This document shows, piece after piece, positions 15,888 to 29,543 of a stretch of 64,000 bases of DNA (position 1 is the first letter of the stretch; each line of letters begins with the position of its first letter). The notes below the pieces were generated by a model. That model was not told the origin of the DNA, made no database searches, and saw nothing but the letters and a program-made list of their open reading frames with translations. Location: NCBI GenBank assembly GCA_963664225.1, contig OY760937.1, positions 2,656,001-2,720,000 on the forward strand. Reading direction: 5' to 3'. Made by a program: the position numbers and the translations under genes. The DNA comes from Verrucomicrobiia bacterium. GTDB taxonomy: Bacteria > Verrucomicrobiota > Verrucomicrobiia > Limisphaerales > UBA1319.

Positions 15888-16823
15888 TCACTTCCCCTTC
15901 AACGTCCTGACGCACTCCGCATATTGATCGGATGCCACGAAGTCGGCGCCGGCGTATCGGGCCGCCATCCAGCGGAGCGTGACCGCCTCAAGGGAGCCAA
16001 AATTGTAAATGGGCAGCCAGCCATGACTCGCGGCGTCCAATTCCACATGGCCGTTGAGCGTGTAGAAACGAATCCAGTAGCCGCGCTCATGTGCGCTTTG
16101 AACCAGCGCCTTCAATCGATCCGCGTCTTCCGCGCTCCAATCGCCCGCGTTGTTTAGTCCCTCAGGCTCGACGTCTTTCCAGGAATAATTCAGCCAGCGA
16201 TGAAAGTTGTCGGCCTTTTGATCCGGGTTTCCAACAGCAAACATCAACAATTTGCTTCCGACGGCGACAGATTCATAAAACGTCTTTCTTTGTTGAACGC
16301 CGTCTGAAGTCAGGATCAGGACTGGCTTTAAATCGAGGGGGGCAGCCTGCGCCATGTCGGCTGTTTTGGGCGCTGTGCAAATCCAGGATTCATATTCCCG
16401 AACCAGGCTCCACAGGGCCGCATAGAACTCCGGTTTGGAGGTCCTCAAATCGTTGATATTCAGAGTCAGCAAAGGCCATTGAGCTGTGTTCTTCTCCCGA
16501 AGCGCCTTCTCGACCAGGGGCCGGACCTTTTCAAAGAAATAATCCCTCAATGTGGGCTCGGTGCCTCTGGCCCTGCCGCCATGACCGACCACCACACGCG
16601 GGGATTCAGGGTTCGTGGTGTCCCAGATCAAATCCATTTCGATCCCCAGCGGCAGACCGCATTCCAGGGCGCGGTCCACCCGGTCCATCCACTTGCCGTC
16701 GTAGGGGTAGCAATTATGCGCATCGAGCAACACGCGCTGGCCAGGCAGATAACTCCCCGTCTGACCCCACACCGCCGACTCGAACATCAGCAATGCTGCA
16801 AGTGCCAGGTTGTAGTAACGCAT
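15888..16823 (-). CDS. Secreted PLC-like/GDPD-fold phosphodiesterase-like protein
   Basis: Signal peptide, DAHNCY and IEMDL motifs, C-terminal AGADFVASDQY. Confidence 0.6.
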   Translation of the reverse strand: MRYYNLALAALLMFESAVWGQTGSYLPGQRVLLDAHNCYPYDGKWMDRVDRALECGLPLGIEMDLIWDTTNPESPRVVVGHGGRARGTEPTLRDYFFEKVRPLVEKALREKNTAQWPLLTLNINDLRTSKPEFYAALWSLVREYESWICTAPKTADMAQAAPLDLKPVLILTSDGVQQRKTFYESVAVGSKLLMFAVGNPDQKADNFHRWLNYSWKDVEPEGLNNAGDWSAEDADRLKALVQSAHERGYWIRFYTLNGHVELDAASHGWLPIYNFGSLEAVTLRWMAARYAGADFVASDQYAECVRTLKGK

Positions 16824-16980
16824 ATTTGCTTTGTTGGAAAAAATTCAACCAGGAAATCCCGGATGAAGTTAACCTGAAACGGCCATTAATCAACAGTCAA
16901 AAATGCGGCGGGCGACGCAACGGGGCGCAGCCCGGATTCGTCGGCCGCAAGTCCGGGAGGATACCGCATTCTGGCCCCGG

Positions 16981-19536
16981 CTATTTTGGCTGTAACGGTG
17001 CCGCAGCTTTGAAGAAATCCGCGTTCAGAGCCTCGGCCCATTGCTGCGCGGCCTTCTTTTCGCCCGACTCGCTGAGGTGGATTCTGTCCACCGTATCTTC
17101 CCTGGCTAATGTGTCATAGTCCGCACCGGGGAAGCAATGGGGGTATTCCTTGATCATGCGTTCCTGCACCCGGCGGATCTGTCCGATGCCATCCGGGGGC
17201 GATTGGCGGTTGACCACCACTGCCAGGTTCGGAAAGCCGGCGTCCTTGCGGGCCTGGTCGATCCAGGCTTTGTAGTTCGCGATGATTTTGGACTCGTCCT
17301 TCTCCGGCCAATCGTTCTGGCCCTGATCGGCGAGAATTGCGCGCAGCCCCGTGACCGCACAATACTCGGTTAGCGCGTGTTTCAGGCGGATGTATGGCAT
17401 TCCAATCGACGAAAACACGAATGGATGGTCGAACTGTTCGCCGCGCGCGGATTTGGCCCAATGCTCCAGACTGGTGCCGCCAAATGCGGCATTCAAAACC
17501 AGCACCGGCACGTTTTGCGACCTGACGACGTTCTCCGCAAACGCGGCCCAGAAGTAGGTGCCGTTTCCGGCAGGGGCGGGATGGACGTTGGAAGCGAAAT
17601 GCGCTCCGACGGCTTCAGGCAGAAAACGTGGGTTGCCTGTGAATTTATATTGCCGCTGGGATTCCATATCGCCCGCCGGGAGCGCGATGGTGCTGACACG
17701 GTCGTCTTCGGCCCCGGGCAGGTTTATTTGCCCGCCGTGCGCGACCGAATGCCCCACGACAACGAAAACTTCGCCGACGCCGACACGTTCCACCGTGGCG
17801 GTGGCCGAATGGGCATCGTCCAGCGTGCGAACCTCCATCGAATACCAGCCTGCGGCCGCCGTCAGGCTGCCCCGATAGCTGAGATCGGGGCGAACGGTAT
17901 CGAGCCTAGTCCACTCGCCGGCCTTGCCTGTGGCCACATCCACAAGACGCGCCTCCACCATCGCACCCGGCCACGCGCACTTTCCGGCCATAGGAATCAA
18001 CGCGTTCCCGGCCTGATTGCGCTGGAAGACAAGCCGGTTCCCGGGCGAGGTAACCGATAGCGTCGTTTTTGCTGCGGCGCCATCCTTTGGCCGCAAACGA
18101 ATCATCGCGATGCCCGGCGCCTTCAGGTTGAGCCGTAGCGTGGCATGTTCGCCGGAGACCGATTCAATTCGCGCCTTCGAAAAATCATTTTCGACGTCGA
18201 TGATGCGGATTTCCGCAGTCACCCCGCCAGTCCAGGCAAAACCTTTCCAGTCCAGGAGGAACTCCGGGCGCGGATCGGAGTAATTACTCACCAGCAGGGT
18301 TGCTTCCCGTCCGTCCCGGCTCAGTCCAGCCGCAAAGGCCAGTTTTCCGGCAACGGCGCCGCGGGTTTCCACACGCAGGGGCGTTTCCATCAGACCCTGG
18401 AAGGCGCGCAAGCCCTGGTAGGCCTTCTGTGGGACGCCCTGCTCGGTGAAGATGCCGAAACCGCCCAATTCGCCATGGTAGAAATTGCAGACATCGATGG
18501 GCGCATCCTCCAGTTCCAAGAGCGAAGCAACGACAAATGCGGCCCCCGGCGCGCCCGCCATTTCCTTATAGCAGTTTTGCCGCGCGATGGGGGTTGCCGC
18601 GCGGTCAAGCGCCGTCCAGGTGTTGCCGGGAAGATAATTCCATTCGTTCAGGTGATTCTCGGTTTCGGTGAAGCCCTTGGAATCAAGGAGCTGCCTTATA
18701 GCCCGCGAGCGTGAGGAAAGTTCTGCGGGGTCGGCGGTGTAGCAGTGCCAGGAGAAGAAATTCAGCGGCACGTTGTCCTTGCGGCACATGTCCAAAAAGT
18801 TCACGGCAAAATCCGTAGGTTGAAATTCACCTTTGACAAAACTGCCGCTGGCGCCGAGAGCCGGTCCGCCGATCTTCAAGGCGGGGAATTGTTTCTTAAT
18901 GGCCAGTGCGGCGGTTCGATAGAGCCGCAGGTAATCGTCGTCGTTTCCGCTCCACATTGTGGGACGGTTCTCGGGTTCGTTCCAAATTTCCCAATAACGG
19001 ATGTTGTGATGAAATCCATTGGCCCAGCCTTCATTGTAATGGCGGATGATGCCGATGCAGACGGTAGCCCACTTCTCCATATCGGCGGGCGGATGGACAT
19101 GCCGCTTCACGGTCGTATGTTCAATGCTTTCGCCCAGGCGGTAGATCGGTTCCGCGCCAGTCTTGCGCACCGCGTCGATGTATTCGTCGGTCAGCCGGAA
19201 ATCGTAGCTCTCCGGCAGCGTGGGATCGGCATTCGGGTTGGGGAACACCGCATGGTGATCCACGACATACGGATTGGGCCAGCCACAATCGTGCAGGCGC
19301 GTGAATGGTATGCCCAGCTCCTTTTGCTCCTTGATTACATCGAAAATCCCACCCGGCGCCAGCGGCCCCTTGTTGATGCCGTGGAGCGGACGGATGGTTC
19401 CCGTGTGGACGGAGAAGTCGGCCTTCAAAACGGCTTCGTCAGCCTGGAGTGGAGCCGACATCAGCAGGAGGGCGATCAGCCCCAGAGCACGGCGCAGGGA
19501 TCGGGACGAAATCAAACAGGTTTTGTCATTATTCAT
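16981..19536 (-). CDS. GH39-like glycoside hydrolase fused to a sialate O-acetylesterase-like (SGNH) domain
   Basis: N-half: TRLHD, YWEIWNEP, FFSWH, HLNEWN. C-half: VGVGEVFVVVGHS, AFGGTSLEHW, DQGQND, DRIH. Confidence 0.8.
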   Translation of the reverse strand: MNNDKTCLISSRSLRRALGLIALLLMSAPLQADEAVLKADFSVHTGTIRPLHGINKGPLAPGGIFDVIKEQKELGIPFTRLHDCGWPNPYVVDHHAVFPNPNADPTLPESYDFRLTDEYIDAVRKTGAEPIYRLGESIEHTTVKRHVHPPADMEKWATVCIGIIRHYNEGWANGFHHNIRYWEIWNEPENRPTMWSGNDDDYLRLYRTAALAIKKQFPALKIGGPALGASGSFVKGEFQPTDFAVNFLDMCRKDNVPLNFFSWHCYTADPAELSSRSRAIRQLLDSKGFTETENHLNEWNYLPGNTWTALDRAATPIARQNCYKEMAGAPGAAFVVASLLELEDAPIDVCNFYHGELGGFGIFTEQGVPQKAYQGLRAFQGLMETPLRVETRGAVAGKLAFAAGLSRDGREATLLVSNYSDPRPEFLLDWKGFAWTGGVTAEIRIIDVENDFSKARIESVSGEHATLRLNLKAPGIAMIRLRPKDGAAAKTTLSVTSPGNRLVFQRNQAGNALIPMAGKCAWPGAMVEARLVDVATGKAGEWTRLDTVRPDLSYRGSLTAAAGWYSMEVRTLDDAHSATATVERVGVGEVFVVVGHSVAHGGQINLPGAEDDRVSTIALPAGDMESQRQYKFTGNPRFLPEAVGAHFASNVHPAPAGNGTYFWAAFAENVVRSQNVPVLVLNAAFGGTSLEHWAKSARGEQFDHPFVFSSIGMPYIRLKHALTEYCAVTGLRAILADQGQNDWPEKDESKIIANYKAWIDQARKDAGFPNLAVVVNRQSPPDGIGQIRRVQERMIKEYPHCFPGADYDTLAREDTVDRIHLSESGEKKAAQQWAEALNADFFKAAAPLQPK

Positions 19537-19550
19537 TCTTCAAAATCCCA

Positions 19551-22478
19551 TCAGTAGTTTGCTCCCGCTTCCATGAACCGGGCCGAACCCCATGCCGCGT
19601 GGTCGCTCGCGTTTCCATCCCCGCCGTTGAGTATCCGCAACGTGACCAGTCGCGCGCCCACGACGCTGACTTGCATGGGATGAACCATGCCCAACCGCAA
19701 GACGGGGCTTTGCGCTTTGAGTTCGCCGTCCACAAGGAGCTGCGCCACCACGCTGCCGCGCCCCGCTGAATCCTCCACGCCCACATCGGCGGCGAAGAGC
19801 GAAAGATTGCGCCCGGCGATATCGAGGGTCACATCCGCCGGAGTTGCATCCCCAAAGGCGTGGGTCCAGATGGCTTTGGGATGCAACTGGCGTCCGATAC
19901 GGACCGTCTGCCCGTGAATGTTATTGTCTCGGCGCACCGCGTTTTCCGCTCCGGCAGTGGCCCTGGCCCAGGGAAGATCGGATGCAAACACAATGCCTTT
20001 GGGAAGCGTTTTGAGCGGTTTTGTGACAACCTTGCCCGGGTTCCCGTTTGACATTCGCAACCCTCCTGCGGACCGCGATTCAACCTTCCAATACCAGGTT
20101 CGTTCCGATGGCAGTCGAAACTCCGTGTTCGTTGCCGCTGTGCATTTCTCAAACGATACACGTTGAAAGTCTGGCTGATCAGAAATCACAACGCGGTAGT
20201 CGCGAGCGAACGCGTTTTCGTTCCAATGGAGCCGCACGGTATTCGTAAAATAATCGGCCTCCACCGAGGCGGGCAGAAGCTTGAACCTGCCGGGTGGAAT
20301 CAAAGCCTTCGGTTTTCCCAGTGAAGCGTCGCGAACATAAACCAAATCGCAGCTAAAACGATTGGTCAGGTGAACGGTCAAACCGTCCGTCATCAGCTCT
20401 GATCCCAGACGCTTGCCCGCGCTGACCGAACCATCTTCGCTCCAAACCCAGTAAAGCTTGTTGGCGGCCAATCCCGCAAGGGGGACCGTCTTTTGCGGCT
20501 CAGGTGAATCGGGCCGAAACACAAAGAACGTTCCGCGCTTGAGGGGTGCGCTCCAGTAGAACAATCCATCCCAATTGGCGCCGGCGGCGCGTGGTAAAAC
20601 ATGATGCACTTTGACGTCCTTGAGCATGGGACGAATCCAGTTCTTGTAGATGCGCGTGGATTGCCGGGCTGAATCGATTTGGTCGTCGCTCCATCCGGCG
20701 GTATCGGTTGGATCGATGTGCCAGGCCCCCATCATTGCGCTGCGCCAGAGGTAATCGCCCGGCTCGTCGCCTTTCACGGGGAAGTAATTGTCGTAGGTAT
20801 AGCATTGAAGAACCAGGGGAGGCAGGGCGAAGGTCGAATCATACATGCTCTGGCGATCCGCGAGGTTGGAGAGCATATCCGTGGTCGCAATCAGGTGTGT
20901 TCGCTGGATGATCCCAAAATCCTTGATGTGCCCTCCGCCGGAGCAATCTTCGATGACCACGTGGGGGTACTTCTTATGCATGGCCTCCTGCACTTCATAA
21001 TAACCAAGCGTCGCCCAGTAGCTTGCATCCACGCCGTAATGGTGCCGGTGCGTTGTCTGCAAACAGCGGTTTACAATCGGATCGCTGTCGTGCTTGAGAT
21101 AGTCCAGATGGTAATCCCGGACGAGTGACTGCGTCTTCTCGATGGCCCACGCCCTGGCTTCCGGCGACCCCAGACACAATTTCGCGCCGTAATGAGGCCC
21201 GGGCGTCCAACCGGCGGGAGTATTGGTGCTGAACCAATCGGGGTGGCCGTTCGGACCCCGCACACTTAACGCGCCGGGTTCTTCCGAAATGCCGCCATTG
21301 CTCCAGGCGCACCAAAGGGCCTGCCGCATGCCGTTTGTATGAACCCATGCCTCTATGGGTTTGATGCCCTGGGGAAAACGGCGTGGATCCCAACGCCAAT
21401 CTCCGCATTCGGGATACCACATGGCGTCGGGCATGAACGCCTCAAAACCGAGTTCGTGACAAAACCGCGCGCTACGCAACACGTCTGCTTCGGTCGCGTT
21501 GGTCATGCCGTAATCGAGATAAAGATTATACGCCAGGATCGGGTCTGGAACGGCCGCAGGCAGCGGTGGGCGCAACTTCTCGATTACAAAGCGGTGAAGG
21601 CTGTAACTGCCCTCCTCCAGATCTCCCGAGTAACATCCGACAAAGGCAGGCGGGATCTTCAGAGTCTCACCCGGCTCGATGTCCGTCTTGAACCCGGGCC
21701 AAAGTCCCGCGGCAATGCTCAAGCCGGCATCTCGTCCCAGGGCCTGCACCCGCCCGAGTCCCGAGAATTCCCAACCGAGGTATAATCCGCGCTTTTCGCC
21801 CTCCTGCACCGCGAGCCATGGCACCGGGCTGGCGCCGTCATCGCAATTATTGGTCAACACCAGGCTTGTCCCGTTGGTCAGAGGTTGGGAAAACGTGCCG
21901 CCCTGCGTCGTGGCAGACGCGCCGCCACGCTTGATCCACCAAAGTTGCGAAGCCGCCCTTGGGCCAATCCCAATCAATGCCAGACTCTCCTGCTGGGAAA
22001 TAGACACGCGCCGGGGCGAAGCGTTTCGAATTTCCACCCAATGCTCAATGGGGCCGCGCCCCGGACGCGCGCGCCAGACCGATTCCAGCACCAGCGATGG
22101 CTCGCGATTCAGGAACTCAACGCGCAAAACGCCCGACTTTTCCAACGCTTTGGAATACTGCCATGCCGCTGGACGATCGCTTCCGTCCACACCGACACGC
22201 TCCAGCAAAGGCAACGGCGATGGGCTCGAAAGCCAGTTTTCACGCGAATGGACATCTTCCAGGCGTTGAACCACGAGCGTGTTGTCGCGCAGGCCCAATT
22301 CAATGACGGTGTCCGAGGTGGAAAGGGTCCAGGTTTGCGCAGCCATCGACGGTCGCGGCGAAACGGCAAACAAAAGCAGGAGAAGGCCGGTCCATCTGCC
22401 GAGCAAACGACGCGGCCGGGAGTTTTGGCCTGGAAACATGACGGACAAAAAATCGGCGCTATTCATCGGATGTTTCAT
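19551..22478 (-). CDS. GH36-like alpha-galactosidase with C-terminal NPCBM domain
   Basis: GDWRWDPRRFPQG, DYLKHD, IEDCSGGG; C-terminal FASDLPW...FAADVGVED...GSV...DHAAWG (NPCBM). Start uncertain (22478, 22466 or later). Confidence 0.8.
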   Translation of the reverse strand: MKHPMNSADFLSVMFPGQNSRPRRLLGRWTGLLLLLFAVSPRPSMAAQTWTLSTSDTVIELGLRDNTLVVQRLEDVHSRENWLSSPSPLPLLERVGVDGSDRPAAWQYSKALEKSGVLRVEFLNREPSLVLESVWRARPGRGPIEHWVEIRNASPRRVSISQQESLALIGIGPRAASQLWWIKRGGASATTQGGTFSQPLTNGTSLVLTNNCDDGASPVPWLAVQEGEKRGLYLGWEFSGLGRVQALGRDAGLSIAAGLWPGFKTDIEPGETLKIPPAFVGCYSGDLEEGSYSLHRFVIEKLRPPLPAAVPDPILAYNLYLDYGMTNATEADVLRSARFCHELGFEAFMPDAMWYPECGDWRWDPRRFPQGIKPIEAWVHTNGMRQALWCAWSNGGISEEPGALSVRGPNGHPDWFSTNTPAGWTPGPHYGAKLCLGSPEARAWAIEKTQSLVRDYHLDYLKHDSDPIVNRCLQTTHRHHYGVDASYWATLGYYEVQEAMHKKYPHVVIEDCSGGGHIKDFGIIQRTHLIATTDMLSNLADRQSMYDSTFALPPLVLQCYTYDNYFPVKGDEPGDYLWRSAMMGAWHIDPTDTAGWSDDQIDSARQSTRIYKNWIRPMLKDVKVHHVLPRAAGANWDGLFYWSAPLKRGTFFVFRPDSPEPQKTVPLAGLAANKLYWVWSEDGSVSAGKRLGSELMTDGLTVHLTNRFSCDLVYVRDASLGKPKALIPPGRFKLLPASVEADYFTNTVRLHWNENAFARDYRVVISDQPDFQRVSFEKCTAATNTEFRLPSERTWYWKVESRSAGGLRMSNGNPGKVVTKPLKTLPKGIVFASDLPWARATAGAENAVRRDNNIHGQTVRIGRQLHPKAIWTHAFGDATPADVTLDIAGRNLSLFAADVGVEDSAGRGSVVAQLLVDGELKAQSPVLRLGMVHPMQVSVVGARLVTLRILNGGDGNASDHAAWGSARFMEAGANY

Positions 22479-22959
22479 GACTTGCTTTGTTCTCAATCTC
22501 CATGGTTGCTTCAGCGAAAAACCCTGTTTTCCCTGATCCCGCAGATGACCGCGTCCTTCGGGACATTTCGGGACCGCCATCGATCCTTGCCATAGCCTTT
22601 TGCCATGGACGGAAATTTCAATTGTCTCAATTGCTTCATTGCAGCCAACCGGGGGAATGGGATCGCCCTTATGATGCCTTGATTCGTCCATTGATCAAGC
22701 CGCCATTTTCCGGTTTTTATTAGCAGATGGAGCGCGGAACAAAATCCAAGGCATCGAGCTAAAGCACCCAATCATTCCAGCACAGGGCGCGAAAAGGGTG
22801 GTTTCTTTGCATTGGCCGTAATCCAGGCCCGCACATTGACAATTACGGTTGGACATTCCTCATTTCAGTGCGATTAGTTCTTCATCTGGAAGGTATAAGA
22901 CCTGCGTATGCACGGCAGGGCCGTTTAGTTCGACCAATGAATGAGTAGCTTGATTTGCC

Positions 22960-23517
22960 ATGAAAACGATGAACCGATTATTCCTCAGCGCGGCCGCGGC
23001 TTTTGCCTTGCTCGCCTCCATTTCCACTCAGGCGGCCGTGGACATGTTTCTGGACATGGGCAAAGACATACCCGGGGAATCCACCGATAAAGCGCATCCC
23101 AACACCGTGGATGTCCTGGCCTGGAGCTGGGGAATGTCCAACTCAGGCACGACTCACCTTGGCGGAGGCGCGGGTGCGGGCAAGGCGAGCTTCCAGGACT
23201 TGAGCCTCACGAAATATGTGGACAAGGCCAGTCCCAATCTCATGTTGTACTGCGCCAACGGAAAGCATTTCGCAACCGCCACCTTGATCGTTCGCAAAGC
23301 TGGCGCAGTACCGGTCGAATACATCAAAATCACGATGTCGGAAGTCATGGTAACCAGCGTTTCGACGGGGGGATCCGGCGGGGAGGATCGTCTGACAGAG
23401 AACATCACCTTGAATTTTGCAAAAGTTGATTTCAGTTATGTGCCCGTGGATCCCAAGGGAGGTGCCGGTACGGCCGTCGAGATGAAGTGGGATATCGCGG
23501 CCAACATCGCGCAATGA
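22960..23517 (+). CDS. hcp: Hcp/TssD-family tube protein with N-terminal Sec signal peptide
   Basis: AVDMFL, GESTDKAH, DVLAWSWGMS, DLSLTKYVDKASPNL, RKAG, VSTGGSGGEDRLTENITLNFAK closely resemble Pseudomonas Hcp1 as I recall it; preceded by MKTMNRLFLSAAAAFALLASISTQA. Confidence 0.93.
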   Translation: MKTMNRLFLSAAAAFALLASISTQAAVDMFLDMGKDIPGESTDKAHPNTVDVLAWSWGMSNSGTTHLGGGAGAGKASFQDLSLTKYVDKASPNLMLYCANGKHFATATLIVRKAGAVPVEYIKITMSEVMVTSVSTGGSGGEDRLTENITLNFAKVDFSYVPVDPKGGAGTAVEMKWDIAANIAQ

Positions 23518-23581
23518 TGGCTGGACTCTGTAACTCAGAGCCCGCTTGAGTGCGGTTTGTGTTTTCATTCCTATTGCGCCT

Positions 23582-24397
23582 ATGTCAACATCAAGAACTG
23601 CAATCCTCGCCTTGGGCTTGTTATTGGCCATTGGCCAGAGCGGCTCGCTGCATGCGGCCATCGACATGTTCCTCAAGGTTGGGAACATCAAAGGGGAGTC
23701 CACAGATCCCGCCCACCCGCAGGAAATCAACGTGCTGGCCTGGTCCTGGGGAATGTCCCGTCCCGCTCCTCCCATTCCCGGAGGAGGAACTGCCATCAGC
23801 AAGGTTTCACTGAGCAGCCTGTCACTGACAAAATACGTGGACTCGTCGAGCGCGCCGCTGATGAAATACTGCGCCACTGGAAAAACACTGTCCAACGCGC
23901 AACTGACATTGCGTACGGCGGGCGATCAACCGTTGGAGTTCTGCACCATTACCATGACGAATGTCATGATCGTCGGCATTGCATCCGGCGGTTCGGGCGG
24001 TGAGGATCGCCTGACTGAGAACATCACCCTCGACTTTGAGACGCTCAACGTCATCTACCATCCGGTCGCCAACACCACCCTTGAACCTCGAATCGGTTTC
24101 GATTGGAGCGTCGTAGCGGACACGGGGTTGGCCAGTGTCGTCCCCAATCCCTTGCCCGCTCCGGTTCCCAGCCTGGTCTCAACCCTTTCCCATACCAATG
24201 ACACTCCCTTCGCGCAATTGACCTGGGTGAGCACCGCAGGCGCCATCTACCGGATCTGGGCTGCCGACAGCGTTGAGTCTGGTTATCAGGTTTACGGAGG
24301 AGATATCCCATCCGCAGGAGACGGGACCACTTCCATGACCCTTCCGGCGATCCTGGGACGCAAGTTTTTCAGGATCGAAACGGTCTCTGTTAAATGA
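23582..24397 (+). CDS. hcp: Second Hcp-family protein with signal peptide, Pro-rich linker and ~70-aa C-terminal domain
   Basis: MSTSRTAILALGLLLAIGQSGSLHA then AIDMFLKVGNIKGES...VLAWSWGMS...GGSGGEDRLTENITLDF, then PNPLPAPVP and LTW...YRI...KFFRI. Confidence 0.9.
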   Translation: MSTSRTAILALGLLLAIGQSGSLHAAIDMFLKVGNIKGESTDPAHPQEINVLAWSWGMSRPAPPIPGGGTAISKVSLSSLSLTKYVDSSSAPLMKYCATGKTLSNAQLTLRTAGDQPLEFCTITMTNVMIVGIASGGSGGEDRLTENITLDFETLNVIYHPVANTTLEPRIGFDWSVVADTGLASVVPNPLPAPVPSLVSTLSHTNDTPFAQLTWVSTAGAIYRIWAADSVESGYQVYGGDIPSAGDGTTSMTLPAILGRKFFRIETVSVK

Positions 24398-24567
24398 GTT
24401 CCCAGTGTGAATGGCCCAATTCCGCCCGCGGTTCCCTGCAGGTGCGGGGGATGTTCTGGTCGGCAGGAAAACTCATATAGCCGACTTGCGGTGACGGCCC
24501 CCACAGTCGCCAAACCCGGGAGGATTATCTTGTTGTCACTTCAATCAGACCTTTTAAATTGACCCAT

Positions 24568-26904
24568 ATGCGTTCGCCACTCTTTCGCCATTCTCGCATC
24601 CCGCATTATGCCGGATGCATTGCCATACCGTTTTTGTTTTTGACTGCCGCCGTTTCCACCTTGCTGGGCGCCCCGGCCGACGCGCAGGACCGGCCTGTGG
24701 ACTATATCCGTCCATTTGTTGGCACCCAGGGTGAGGGAAACACCTACCCCGGCCCTTCGGCCCCTTTTGGGATGGTGCAACTCAGCCCGGATACCGATCG
24801 AGACCTGTGGGAAACGGCTTCCGGTTATGAATACTCGGACACCTCCATCATGGGCTTTACGATGACGCATTTGTCGGGTACGGGCATTCCCGATCTGGGT
24901 GACTTTTTGTTCATTCCGCAGATCGGCGAACCCAAACTGACTTGCGGGACGAAGAAGGATCCGGATGTCGGCTATCGCGCCCGCTATTCGCACGATCAGG
25001 AGTCTGCTTCCGCGGGTTATTACAAGGTCAAACTCCTCAATAACAACGTGACGGTCGAACTGGCCGCGGCGGAGCGGGCGGGCATGATGCGCTTCACCTT
25101 TCCAGAGAGCAATCAGGCCAGCATCATGACGGACCTGCAGCATTTCCTGAGCGGGAATCGCTTTAAACTGATCTGGTCCCACGTTCGCGTCGAAGACCAG
25201 TCCACCGTCACCGGTTTTCATCTGGTCAACGGCTGGGGCAAGGAGCGTTATCTCTATTATGCCGCCCGTTATTCCAGGCCTTTTGACACGTACCGCATCA
25301 TGAGCAATGGCAGCGAAGTCAAATACGACAGCTACAAGACCTACCGCTTTCGCAGCAGGAATGAAGCTGCGGGGACAAATCTCCAATTTCTGGCTGAATA
25401 CAAAACCCGTGCCAATGAGGCCATCACGGTCAAGGTCGCGGTCTCAGCGGTCAGCGCCGCCAACGCGATGAAAAACCTGGACTCCGACATTCCGGAATGG
25501 AACTTCGAGGCCGTGGTTCAAGGCACCCGCGAGAAATGGAATCGCGAGCTGAGCCGGATTGAAATCGAAGGTTCGCCTGCGGACAAGGAAACTTTTTACA
25601 CCAGCATGTATCATCTGTTCCTGGCGCCCAATATTTACCAGGATGTCACAGGCGAGTATCGCGGTCTGGACTCCAATATCCATCAGGCCAGGGGATTCAA
25701 AAACTACGCCGTATTCTCCCTCTGGGATACCTATCGCGCCGCGCATCCGCTCTTCACGCTCATCCAGTCGCAGCGGGATTCAGATATGATCAATTCCCTG
25801 CTGGCTCATTTCGACCAGAGTGTCGATCACCTCCTGCCATTATGGTCGCTCCAGGGCAATGAAACCTGGTGCATGATCGGCTATCACGCAGTGCCGGTGA
25901 TCGTGGACGGCTTTCTCAAAGGCGTGAAGGGTTTCGACAGGGAACGCGCCTACCATGCCATCAAGACCAGCGCCATGAACCCCGACTATGATGGTGTGGC
26001 GGCTTATGCCCAACTCGGCTGGGTTCCCTTCGACAAGGAGAATGAGTCCGTTTCCAAGACGCTGGAATACGCTTATGACGACTATTGCGTCGCCCAAATG
26101 GCCAGGGCCCTGGGCAAAAAGGAGGACTACGCCTATTTCATGAAACGTTCCATGGGATACACGAATCTTTACGATCCCTCGGTGGGTCTCATGCGCGGGA
26201 AAGACTCCCTCGGAAAATGGCGGACTCCCTTTGATCCCCACGGCTACGACGACGCGAGCCGGAACAATGATTTCACGGAAGGCACGAGTTGGCAGTATTC
26301 GTGGTATGTGCCGCAGGATGTTCCCGGAATGATCCAGCTTTTCGGCGGCAAGGATGCATTCATCCAGAAACTGGATAGCCTCTTCACCTATACCAACATC
26401 AACGCCAAAGGACTGGATGACGTTCAGGGACGCATAGGCGAATACTGGCACGGCAACGAACCCAGCCATCATATCATCTATCTTTATAGCTGCGTCGGCC
26501 AGCCCTGGAAAGCCGCCCAGCGCGTGCATGAAGTTCTCAAAACCCAGTATGGCAGCCAGCCCAATTCACTCAGCGGAAACGACGATTGCGGCCAGATGTC
26601 CGCCTGGTATCTCTTCACCGCCATGGGCTTTTATCCTGTTTGCCCGGCCAGCGACCAGTATGTCATTGGCAGTCCTGCATTAAAGAAAGCCGTGATGCAC
26701 CTTTCCAATGGACGGAAATTCACCATGCGGGCGGATGAACTTTCAGAGCAAAATATCTATGTTCAATCCGTGAAGCTGAATGGGAAAACGTGGGACAGCC
26801 CCATGCTGCCATACAACGCGGTGAAAAACGGTGGAACCATTTTGTTCAAGATGGGGCCGCAACCCAACACCTCATGGGGAACAAACGGTTGTTTTGCAAA
26901 ATAA
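24568..26904 (+). CDS. GH92 alpha-mannosidase
   Basis: PFVGT, GNTYPG, PFGMVQLSPDT, FSLWDTYR, FTEG, HGNEPSHH, GNDDCGQMSAWY. Confidence 0.95.
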   Translation: MRSPLFRHSRIPHYAGCIAIPFLFLTAAVSTLLGAPADAQDRPVDYIRPFVGTQGEGNTYPGPSAPFGMVQLSPDTDRDLWETASGYEYSDTSIMGFTMTHLSGTGIPDLGDFLFIPQIGEPKLTCGTKKDPDVGYRARYSHDQESASAGYYKVKLLNNNVTVELAAAERAGMMRFTFPESNQASIMTDLQHFLSGNRFKLIWSHVRVEDQSTVTGFHLVNGWGKERYLYYAARYSRPFDTYRIMSNGSEVKYDSYKTYRFRSRNEAAGTNLQFLAEYKTRANEAITVKVAVSAVSAANAMKNLDSDIPEWNFEAVVQGTREKWNRELSRIEIEGSPADKETFYTSMYHLFLAPNIYQDVTGEYRGLDSNIHQARGFKNYAVFSLWDTYRAAHPLFTLIQSQRDSDMINSLLAHFDQSVDHLLPLWSLQGNETWCMIGYHAVPVIVDGFLKGVKGFDRERAYHAIKTSAMNPDYDGVAAYAQLGWVPFDKENESVSKTLEYAYDDYCVAQMARALGKKEDYAYFMKRSMGYTNLYDPSVGLMRGKDSLGKWRTPFDPHGYDDASRNNDFTEGTSWQYSWYVPQDVPGMIQLFGGKDAFIQKLDSLFTYTNINAKGLDDVQGRIGEYWHGNEPSHHIIYLYSCVGQPWKAAQRVHEVLKTQYGSQPNSLSGNDDCGQMSAWYLFTAMGFYPVCPASDQYVIGSPALKKAVMHLSNGRKFTMRADELSEQNIYVQSVKLNGKTWDSPMLPYNAVKNGGTILFKMGPQPNTSWGTNGCFAK

Positions 26905-27161
26905 CCGCATTGAACCCGATCCATAGCCTGGCGACCTGTTCCATCGCAGGTTTGCCAGGTGCGTGATTCTTCGGGCTTGCGGGTTTGCATTTGGGATCGC
27001 TTTCCAACATCCGGGGGGTTGACGATGCTTGTGCAGGCCTTCATCACGACCTGCCAAATAATTTTCAAAAAGGTGTAACTCTTTCGCTGCCGGTGGCGTA
27101 AATAACAGAAGCGAATGATTATGATGACATCCTTGAATCGAGCGCGTTTCTTCTGGAGCCT

Positions 27162-29543
27162 ATGCACCGCCTGTTAATTTTGGTCGCAGTTGTTTGCGGC
27201 GCGGCGTGCATTGCCGCTGCACCGCCGCATGTCGTGCATGTGGGATTGGTCGCGCCTGACATCATTGGCATCACAATCTCTGCGGGCCATGTGGAATATG
27301 GACGCCAGACGCCCTACGTGAAACAGGCGGGAGACACCGTGAATTCCAATGACATTCACCGCTTTCTCACTCGCGATGGAAAAGTGGTCGGCAATCTGGT
27401 CGGAACCAATGCGGATATTCTCTGCTCGATGGACGCGGTGGTGGGCGAGAGGTTCAACACCGAATGGGCCGATCAGCCGGTCAACTACACGGTCACTTCC
27501 GGGCAGGACCCCCATTACAGCACTCCCCGGAAGCCCGTTGCGGTGTATCGTAAAAGCAAGGCTTCCGACCTGGCCATGATCGGCATTTACAAATTCGATT
27601 CCCCAACAGAGCACATCGTGTATTTGAAACTGCCGACGCCGTTGATGGCCCGCAAGCAATACGTCATTGCCTTCAAGCAAAGTCCATTGGCAAAGCAGAC
27701 GCTTGCCTTCGATCCGGACGCGTTGCGCAGCGAGGCCGTGCATGTCAACCAGATTGGATTTCGTCCCGATGATCCGGCCAAGGTCGCGTTTCTTTCCTGC
27801 TGGCTGGGGAACGGCGGCGGGCTCAAATATGACGAGGGCCTGCCCTTTACCGTGTTTGACGAGGTAAACGGAAAATCGGTTTTTGAGGGACTGACCGTGT
27901 TGTCCAAAGCCGCCACGGATAAAACCGAGGATGCCTATAAAAAGAACTATAACGGCACGGATGTTTACATGATGGACTTTACGGCCCTCAACAAACCAGG
28001 CCGGTATCGTGTCTCGGTCAAAACCATTGGCTGCTCCTATCCATTCGAGATCGCCGACGATGTCTGGCGAAAGGCGTTCATTGTCTCGGCACGGGGGTTT
28101 TATCATCAGCGGAGCGGCATTGTGCTGGGGGAGCCGTTCACCACTTATAAACGACCGCGATCGTTTCATCCGGAGGATGGCATGAAGGTCTATGCCTCAA
28201 AGACGCCGATCATGGACACCGGCAATGGCCTCAACCAGAAGGACTCCAATTTCGGGAACCTGGTGAAGGGCAAAACGGATGAGATCGTCACCAACGCGTG
28301 GGGCGGCTACATGGACGCGGGGGATTGGGACCGGCGCATCCAGCATCTGAAATCGACCTATCTATTGCTGGAGCTGGCCGAACTATTCCCGGACTACTTT
28401 GCGAAGCTTCCGCTGAACATTCCTGAATCCGGCAATGGCCTGCCGGACATTGTCAATGAAGCCCTCTTCAATCTCGACTTCTTCCGGCGCCTGCAATTGC
28501 CCGATGGGGGCGTGCGCGGCGGCATCGAATCGTCCGAGCATCCACGTCATGGCGAGGCCAGTTTCCAGGAGTCCCTGACCGCGATGGCCTATGCGCCGGA
28601 CATTTTCTCCAGCTACGTCTATTCGGGCGTGGCGGCGCGCGCGGCCCGGTGGCTCGGCGCACGCAATCCTGAGCGCGCGGCCGTGTATCGGGAGAGTGCC
28701 TTGCGCGCCATGCAATGGGCGGAGAACGACCGGGAGCGGGAGGAGCGGGACTATCTGATGGCCAAAGACCCTGCCGTGAAAGAGGTCCGAAACTATGCGG
28801 CGGCAGAATTATTCAACCTGACCGGCGAGTCCAAATGGAACGATCTGTTTGTGTCCACCACCATTTTCAAAGAGACCAGCGCGGATATTCCGTATCATTG
28901 GGACAGCCTGGACCAGGCGGATGCCGCATGGGTTTATGCCCGGACCGATAGACCCGGCATCGACACCGCCGTGCAACTGAACTGCCGCAACGCGGTCATC
29001 AAGGTGGCAGACATCCGACTCGAGAGCATTGCGCACACGGGTTTTCACTGGGCGAAGCATCCCTATGGCCCTGTTGTTTACGGTGCGCTGAGCAGCCCCG
29101 AAGGTTGCGTCAATGTGGTTCGCGCGCATGTGCTCACCGGGGATGCCAAATACCTGCGCGCCATTGTCCTGGCCAGCCAGACGGGCGCCGGCGCGAACCC
29201 CGTGAACATGTGCTACACCACTGGACTGGGCCAGAAAGCCCCGCAGCATCCGCTGCAACTGGATCATCGGATTACCCATCAAGCCCCGCCCCCGGGCATC
29301 ACCGTGGGCGGCCCCATGGACAACAACATGAAAGGAATGACGGACCCGTTCATTGGCCCGTTTGCGGGTGCCACGATTTTTCCGCCGCCGAAAGAGTGGC
29401 CCGCGCTGGAGGCCTTTTGGGATGTCTTTTGGGATCCCATGATTTGCGAATACACCATCCAGAAGCCGATGGCCGGTAACGCCTATGTCTGGGGTTACCT
29501 TGCCGCCCGCGCGAAGTTGCCTGTCACCGCGCCAACCCGCTAA
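27162..29543 (+). CDS. GH9 glycoside hydrolase with N-terminal Ig-like domain
   Basis: VHVNQIGF, FYHQRSG, GGYMDAGDWD, GNGLPDIVNE, C-terminal CEYTI; signal peptide. Confidence 0.88.
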   Translation: MHRLLILVAVVCGAACIAAAPPHVVHVGLVAPDIIGITISAGHVEYGRQTPYVKQAGDTVNSNDIHRFLTRDGKVVGNLVGTNADILCSMDAVVGERFNTEWADQPVNYTVTSGQDPHYSTPRKPVAVYRKSKASDLAMIGIYKFDSPTEHIVYLKLPTPLMARKQYVIAFKQSPLAKQTLAFDPDALRSEAVHVNQIGFRPDDPAKVAFLSCWLGNGGGLKYDEGLPFTVFDEVNGKSVFEGLTVLSKAATDKTEDAYKKNYNGTDVYMMDFTALNKPGRYRVSVKTIGCSYPFEIADDVWRKAFIVSARGFYHQRSGIVLGEPFTTYKRPRSFHPEDGMKVYASKTPIMDTGNGLNQKDSNFGNLVKGKTDEIVTNAWGGYMDAGDWDRRIQHLKSTYLLLELAELFPDYFAKLPLNIPESGNGLPDIVNEALFNLDFFRRLQLPDGGVRGGIESSEHPRHGEASFQESLTAMAYAPDIFSSYVYSGVAARAARWLGARNPERAAVYRESALRAMQWAENDREREERDYLMAKDPAVKEVRNYAAAELFNLTGESKWNDLFVSTTIFKETSADIPYHWDSLDQADAAWVYARTDRPGIDTAVQLNCRNAVIKVADIRLESIAHTGFHWAKHPYGPVVYGALSSPEGCVNVVRAHVLTGDAKYLRAIVLASQTGAGANPVNMCYTTGLGQKAPQHPLQLDHRITHQAPPPGITVGGPMDNNMKGMTDPFIGPFAGATIFPPPKEWPALEAFWDVFWDPMICEYTIQKPMAGNAYVWGYLAARAKLPVTAPTR

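Follow-up and report, generated by a model that had tools for sequence, protein, structure and literature searches.

Tandem Hcp genes with predicted signal peptides in a Verrucomicrobiia genome that lacks a type VI secretion system

An Hcp pair outside the type VI secretion system

The window considered here is a stretch of 64,000 nucleotides (nt) from contig OY760937.1 of a Verrucomicrobiia bacterium, whose genome is labelled G000; all positions are window coordinates unless another contig or locus is named. On its plus strand lie two open reading frames (ORFs), ORF-A and ORF-B, that encode a short and a long protein of the Hcp family, the ring protein found in type VI secretion systems (T6SS), and both proteins begin with a leader of the type that serves the general secretory (Sec) pathway. 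The best explanation, to which a probability of about 0.72 is given, is a Sec-exported module of a short and a long Hcp that acts without a T6SS or any other contractile machine, and there seems to be a second, undescribed role for this ring protein at the envelope or surface of the cell. The canonical protein lacks a signal peptide; it is assembled on VgrG and the baseplate in the cytoplasm, within the TssBC sheath, and contraction of that sheath takes it out of the cell. As functional T6SS tube components, ORF-A and ORF-B fail on two defining features, in that a predicted signal peptide is present on each and the genome has no T6SS.

The genome, a single closed contig of 5.78 Mb, is 96% complete as judged from marker genes. 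When it was searched with profiles in six frames at E <= 0.1, with E. coli matched as positive control every time, there was no detection of TssB, TssC, TssE/gp25, TssF, TssK, TssM, VgrG/gpD, PAAR or the phage sheath; ClpV was left out of the search because ClpB-like ATPases are found everywhere. An earlier reading made from the letters of the window, referred to below as the sequence-only reading, had recognised no T6SS genes in the 64 kb, and this is borne out for the families searched (ClpV not among them), for the whole genome as well as for the window. It had also named export that depends on a complete T6SS elsewhere in the genome as a finding that would speak against it; no such system was found by profile search.

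Signal peptides of ORF-A and ORF-B

ORF-A (22960..23517, stop codon included) encodes a precursor of 185 residues, and ORF-B (23582..24397) a precursor of 271 residues. Two adjacent, co-oriented Hcp genes had been read at this place, and the ORF list and matches to the Pfam family T6SS_HCP (PF05638; E 3.2e-39 for ORF-A and 4.3e-32 for ORF-B) agree with that reading. The leader of ORF-A (22960..23034) consists of 25 residues, MKTMNRLFLSAAAAFALLASISTQA, followed by AVDMF; it ends in T-Q-A, and a crude heuristic signal-peptide score puts the cut by signal peptidase I after A25, leaving a predicted mature protein of 160 residues (23035..23514) that is an Hcp1-type domain. The leader of ORF-B (23582..23656), taken from direct reading, is also 25 residues, MSTSRTAILALGLLLAIGQSGSLHA, followed by AIDMF; it ends in L-H-A, with a less usual Leu at position -3, and leaders of this type (SGSLHA before AID) also occur in the long-form homologues P0032, P0107, P0122 and P0125. 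Direct reading and the same heuristic give both leaders the three parts (n, h and c) of a signal peptide: the n-region is basic, the core hydrophobic and the end of the small-x-small type. Lipoprotein and twin-arginine translocation routes were considered for both proteins and rejected, since neither a lipobox Cys nor a twin-arginine (RR) motif is present.

Conservation of the leaders was evaluated in the best 120 homologues from a collection of 5.8 billion proteins. A leader, called as an N-terminal extension whose maximal 9-residue hydropathy was 2.08-3.34 in the leader-bearing homologues, is present in 32 of the 120; 84 are leaderless, one has a partial (truncated) leader, and three are without the keyed motif. 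In the 84 leaderless proteins a Met stands directly ahead of A-V-D-M-F, whereas in the leader-bearing ones this canonical initiator position is held by Ala (29/32) or Gly (3/32), which is the -1 residue of the predicted signal-peptidase site. Predicted cleavage would thus recreate the N-terminus that canonical Hcp1 has after removal of its Met. Leaders of the homologues are usually exactly 25 residues long when counted from the Met ahead of the basic residues, and those of ORF-A homologues belong to proteins 98-63% identical to it. Their sequences drift freely and the n/h/c character is kept, as expected of translated signal peptides; the leader frame stays open, with that character, from 98% to below 30% identity and across families. 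Where ORF-A has the Val whose GTG codon might be a start, other members have Ile, Leu, Thr, Ser or Tyr, and there is therefore no conserved alternative start.

The sequence-only reading had placed both leaders so that they end just before A[VI]DMF, and had treated loss of the leaders in homologues as a point that would refute it. On both counts it has stood up: the predicted mature N-terminus is that of canonical Hcp1, and the leaders are kept, with A or G at the canonical Met position in all 32. From sequence, the leaders are real and not a chance open frame, and a predicted Sec export independent of a T6SS is well supported.

Hcp fold and lumen

That ORF-A and ORF-B are true members of the Hcp (TssD) family is supported by their PF05638 scores of 134.6 and 111.6 bits (cut-off 23.5). 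Mature ORF-A aligns over residues 1-158 with Hcp1 of Pseudomonas aeruginosa (Protein Data Bank, PDB, entry 1Y12) at E 1e-57 in a phmmer search against the PDB, a match from which the Hcp beta-barrel fold is predicted for it. The AlphaFold model of mature ORF-B (mean predicted local distance difference test score, pLDDT, 81.4) has an Hcp domain (mature residues 1-162; 23657..24142), a short linker and then a separate beta-sandwich. With Foldseek the top match of the modelled Hcp domain is again 1Y12, at a template modelling score (by target) of 0.89, a root-mean-square deviation of 2.1 A and 43-44% identity, and the Hcp beta-barrel is thus the predicted fold of ORF-B also.

According to Howard et al. 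2021 (PMC8262886), effector binding by P. aeruginosa Hcp1 needs the lumen residues L28, A29, S31, T59, S115 and T122. All six are identical in both ORF-A and ORF-B, in ORF-A as L28, A29, S31, T59, S114 and T121. The short form is about 60-70% identical to proteobacterial Hcp1s, and closeness to Hcp1 together with the six identical lumen residues suggests a hexameric ring for ORF-A.

Distribution of leaders and T6SS genes

The phylum was sampled evenly with 401 genomes, G000 included. Hcp was found in 30 of these and TssC in 19. Seventeen genomes have both, and in all 17 the best Hcp is leaderless: it starts with M-A-x-D just after a short or non-hydrophobic upstream frame, and it adjoins TssC wherever the tables show both genes. 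Thirteen genomes have Hcp without TssC, and all 13 have at least one leader-bearing Hcp; two have TssC with no Hcp detected. The distribution is given as counts and not as a test because kin are not independent and the sample is partial. Across it, a leader and a T6SS exclude each other almost completely. A second subfamily, whose mature N-terminus is AEP[IL]HV, is represented by single leader-bearing Hcps at G081:C8:296174-296554 (L046) and G327:C29:350179-350580 (L038).

Outside this sample, the 80 closest loci in Genome Taxonomy Database (GTDB) species genomes were inspected. Four are leader-bearing, from two Verrucomicrobiota metagenome-assembled genomes (MAGs), a Pontiellaceae (Kiritimatiellota) genome and a Rubrivivax MAG, and TssC was found in none of these four genomes, the completeness of which is not known. 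The other 76 are leaderless and mostly from Pseudomonadota; a leaderless Planctomycetota genome taken as control has TssC. Leaderless Hcp1-like genes were further observed in records of Subtercola vilae, Chloroflexia, Actinomycetota and Acidimicrobiales (L063, L102, L117 and L125), with no TssC in the four tested genomes of this group. They may be contamination, part of another tail-like system or another orphan use of Hcp; to our knowledge, these are not phyla known for T6SS.

The two-gene module and its evolution

In 10 of the 13 T6SS-less genomes of the phylum sample a short Hcp is followed within tens of bases by a longer one, both with leaders, and the same short and long tandem occurs at three of the four leader-bearing GTDB loci. 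The module is found in T6SS-less bacteria of the Planctomycetota-Verrucomicrobiota-Chlamydiota (PVC) group, in Verrucomicrobiota-type genomes and in a Kiritimatiellota genome. The flanks of 11 loci are unrelated (RecD2, RlmN-like, AsnRS, Gfo/Idh/MocA, Hsp90, UppS, PurA, GH2, LemA and others), with different and ordinary housekeeping or catabolic genes at every locus, and therefore the pair is the unit. No conserved neighbour that hints at function, and no usher, sortase-like or other assembly gene conserved beside the pair, was found in these flanks.

A maximum-likelihood tree was built from 126 Hcp domains, with domains of fewer than 100 residues and duplicates left out and one false leader call (L017) reset. 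Members of a pair tend to group together; the window pair falls together with that of G317 and with a short form from Verrucomicrobiota at a Shimodaira-Hasegawa-like approximate likelihood ratio (SH-aLRT) support of 95. In five of five pairs the long copy has the longer terminal branch (0.87 versus 0.29, 1.34 versus 0.23, 0.81 versus 0.45, 0.36 versus 0.25 and 0.39 versus 0.31), and the short protein is strongly constrained from end to end. Rows with leaders fall within the radiation of canonical Hcp1. On the free tree the leader label has to change 10 times, and well-supported branches force at least three of these changes. When the 12 leader rows of a 55-row, Hcp1-like subset were constrained to stay together, the approximately unbiased (AU) test did not reject this (p-AU 0.363), so a single leader origin within that subset is compatible with the tree.

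The long copy and its C-terminal module

In relatives of ORF-B the Hcp domain is followed by TSP3_bac calcium-binding repeats or by Big_9, cadherin or He_PIG immunoglobulin-like (Ig) domains. A module of about 75 residues with a terminal F-[FY]-R-[VI] motif ends at least eight of the 10 long forms in the phylum sample, all three long forms of the outside loci and all five among the fetched homologues. In ORF-B it occupies mature residues of about 175-246 (24179..24394) and ends in FFRIETVSVK. No Pfam family (E <= 10) or NCBIfam family (E <= 1) was detected on the ORF-B tail. Modelled alone, the module is a predicted seven-strand, Fn3-like sandwich (pLDDT 90.7), for which fold searches returned generic Fn3/Ig matches only (best Foldseek E 0.016; best VIA Z 7.1, with 154 chains at Z >= 5).

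In G000, 18 ORFs match a profile built from the module, which lies within four residues of the stop in 15 of them. The 12 annotated carriers (L139-L150) are unrelated, exported-type proteins: a CBM6/35 protein, a 2,892-residue LTD/He_PIG/CotH/PA14 protein, an MBG protein, two PD40/TSP3 proteins, two BspA-LRR proteins, a matrixin, an alpha-1,3-glucanase, a cyclophilin and two with no Pfam family. Among 1.84 billion representatives the profile gives 35,094 matches at E <= 1e-3. The Fn3-like module is a surface-protein building block. On the ORF-B tail no Por_Secre_tail-type match, as used by the type IX secretion system (T9SS), was found in NCBIfam at E <= 1 (T9SS genes were not searched for), and the small beta-sandwich of the tail is a fold that many families share; a PEP-CTERM signal, with its PEP motif, transmembrane helix and basic cluster, is absent from both ORF-A and ORF-B. 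In the Rubrivivax relative (L099:2492-3268), a signal peptide, an Hcp domain and a C-terminal PEP-CTERM signal (TIGR02595, 22.3 bits versus a cut-off of 16) are joined in one protein of 259 residues, and no TssC was seen in the genome of this Rubrivivax sp. MAG. The tail domains, the Fn3-like module and the PEP-CTERM variant put the Hcp domain in extracytoplasmic company, and do so whatever the leader may show.

A third leader-bearing Hcp is encoded in G000 outside the window, at G000:C1:3672152-3673720 (locus L003, 1261..2829). It has a signal peptide, a Pro-rich linker of about 55 residues and an Hcp domain of another subfamily, and it is directly followed by an exported protein of 305 residues with GW-type repeats, TSP3_bac repeats and the Fn3-like C-terminal module of ORF-B.

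A proposed mechanism and its alternatives

Cleavage site, ring formation, location and role are what we infer for ORF-A and ORF-B, in the following form. Signal peptidase I would cut each precursor ahead of AVDMF or AIDMF and so leave the canonical Hcp1 N-terminus, and the mature short protein, once in the periplasm, would form a hexameric ring like that of Hcp1, its cargo-binding lumen intact. Such a ring with a functional lumen is expected since the short protein is constrained and the six lumen residues are kept. The long protein may join rings of the short one or form rings of its own, and its extracellular-type tail could tie the assembly to the envelope or display it there or on the surface. 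With spike, baseplate and sheath absent, free or tail-held rings are more likely than long tubes, and the ring would most likely be a binding or holding scaffold for some ligand and not a projectile. The sequence-only reading had cast copy 1 as the major subunit and copy 2 as an anchor or display subunit; this division has circumstantial backing in the conserved pair, the faster long copy, the extracellular-type domains and the shared Fn3-like module.

Several observations weigh against the exported module. Export and the cleavage site are read from sequence, and both ring formation and contact between ORF-A and ORF-B are hypothetical; a complex prediction for mature ORF-A with the ORF-B Hcp domain (score 0.27, mark 0.32) speaks neither for nor against such contact. 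The NCBIfam model TIGR03344 (VI_effect_Hcp1), which represents another Hcp subfamily, scores both proteins below its cut-off (45.9 and 37.4 bits versus 58.9). In G257 the short gene has a hydrophobic stretch with no ATG, GTG or TTG upstream of it, and its long partner has a clear leader. In the TssC-positive genome G081, a leader-bearing Hcp lies at a locus of its own, about 98 kb away from the T6SS, and therefore the two can coexist; the T6SS locus of G081 is complete-looking. Leaderless Hcp1-like genes also sit in genomes without TssC (four of the five tested), in Actinomycetota and Chloroflexia, and absence of a T6SS alone therefore does not predict a leader. The Fn3-like module is widespread and need not be an anchor or sorting tag, and the top matches among the 35,094 representatives carry 2-25 tandem copies of it. 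Its candidacy as a strict terminal sorting tag, which its position in 15 of 18 ORFs of G000 would suit, is weakened by those tandem copies.

Of the other explanations, the least probable by our estimate, and very improbable in itself, is that these are cytoplasmic relics of a lost T6SS, with translation starting at an internal GTG or ATG (V-D-M) and the hydrophobic frame left untranslated. ORF-A does have a GTG (V27) and an ATG (M29) at the start of its domain, its mature part is very near canonical Hcp1, and leaderless orphan Hcps exist in genomes without TssC. Against this stand the replacement of the initiator Met by A or G in every leader-bearing homologue, the variable Val position in ORF-B and many homologues with no alternative start conserved, and the open leader frame, with its n/h/c character, at all the distances given above; the extracellular-type domains of the long forms speak for export, and strong conservation in 13 T6SS-less genomes argues against decay. 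It is also improbable, if slightly less so, that an exported, periplasmic ring resembling Hcp1 acts as a decoy which soaks up Hcp-borne effectors of T6SS-armed neighbours. The closeness of the short form to proteobacterial Hcp1s would suit a decoy, as would the lack of a T6SS in the carriers themselves and the fact that each of the six lumen residues by which P. aeruginosa Hcp1 binds Tse effectors is retained. However, these residues are conserved across the whole Hcp1 family and so may be structural, and a decoy leaves the surface-type domains of the long partner and the PEP-CTERM variant unexplained.

The sequence-only reading had proposed a polymer, a non-contractile tube or fibre, periplasmic or at the surface, that would be built from stacked short subunits, with the long one as its cap or anchor. 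This is unlikely, though it has somewhat more in its favour than relic or decoy. The asymmetry of the conserved pair, one copy major-like and the other minor-like, may be likened to that of pilus operons, and Ballister et al. reportedly found in 2008 that rings of Hcp1 pile up in crystals and that locking them together in vitro can yield nanotubes. On the other hand, growth of the T6SS tube needs a VgrG hub, baseplate and sheath according to Howard et al. 2021 (PMC8262886); none of these was found in the genome, and no assembly gene of the usher, sortase-like or other kind is conserved beside the pair. A bolder form of the exported short and long module can also be drawn, in which short Hcp rings, or a non-contractile stack of them, are capped or tied by the tail of the long Hcp to form a new envelope or surface organelle for holding cargo or for binding partners, or, in one variant, a periplasmic decoy. 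This is speculative and doubtful, and equally doubtful, as part of that whole picture, is the thought that a phage-tail-tube protein was here domesticated a second time.

The locus and its surroundings

ORF-A and ORF-B are separated by a spacer of 64 nt on the plus strand (23518..23581). A weak consensus scan of 22600-24500 found no terminator-like site, and no promoter-like site inside; the two genes are probably on one transcript, because no terminator-like site lies between them. The longest frame of ORF-B opens at a TTG and spans 23546..24397. Its start is most likely the ATG at 23582, which gives 271 residues, and the protein on public record for it (P0121) has 271 residues.

The upstream neighbour, on the minus strand, is a Melibiase/GH36-type glycoside hydrolase with NPCBM, and the downstream neighbour is a GH92 enzyme; domain annotation of the flanks confirms what had been read there. 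More broadly, exported glycoside hydrolases surround the pair (15888-29543): GH39 with a SASA esterase, the Melibiase/GH36-type with NPCBM, GH92, and GH9 with CelD_N. In its longest frame (19551..22691) the Melibiase gene has about 100 residues ahead of a hydrophobic leader, and because of these its true start is probably further in. A recent horizontal import of the Hcp pair was considered and rejected: its guanine-plus-cytosine content (0.55-0.57) is similar to that of the flanks, and the pair is thus not a fresh import.

Relation to known Hcp proteins and significance

The nearest known counterpart is Hcp1/TssD of the bacterial T6SS-i (P. aeruginosa PA0085, PDB 1Y12), which shares Pfam family, length, fold and lumen residues with ORF-A and ORF-B; unlike it, the window pair has Sec-type leaders, one of its two members bears a surface-type tail, and genes for sheath, baseplate and spike are absent from the genome. 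Ma et al. are said to have described, in 2017, specialised Hcps with C-terminal toxin extensions (Hcp-ET) that are fired by the T6SS. Like ORF-B, an Hcp-ET has an Hcp domain and a C-terminal extension on one polypeptide. In ORF-B, however, a linker and then an Fn3-like sandwich make up the extension (relatives have TSP3, Ig or cadherin domains there), there is a leader and no T6SS, and no toxin family was detected on the tail in Pfam or NCBIfam.

According to the Methods of Howard et al. 2021 (PMC8262886), Hcp genes with PEP-CTERM signals were removed before Hcp trees were built, without comment, and such genes have therefore already been noticed and put aside. They join an Hcp domain to an envelope sorting signal, as L099 does, whereas the window genes have no PEP-CTERM and ORF-B ends in the Fn3-like module. 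No description of signal-peptide Hcps was found in searches of full-text literature (subscription journals and supplements lay outside this scope). New here are the short and long module of PVC bacteria, the near-exclusive split between leader and T6SS in the sampled phylum, and the surface-type tail.

Hcp counts as a defining T6SS component that carries no signal, and finding it serves to mark the system. In this case, Hcp1-type proteins whose closeness to P. aeruginosa Hcp1 almost matches that of many true tube proteins appear to be Sec-routed in bacteria without a T6SS, as a conserved two-gene module, and genome surveys in which Hcp genes are tallied as 'orphan T6SS parts' will mislabel those that bear leaders. 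As small and soluble proteins, the two would be tractable subjects for learning which part a lone Hcp ring plays beyond the cytoplasm, be it that of a receptor, a chaperone, a scaffold or a decoy.

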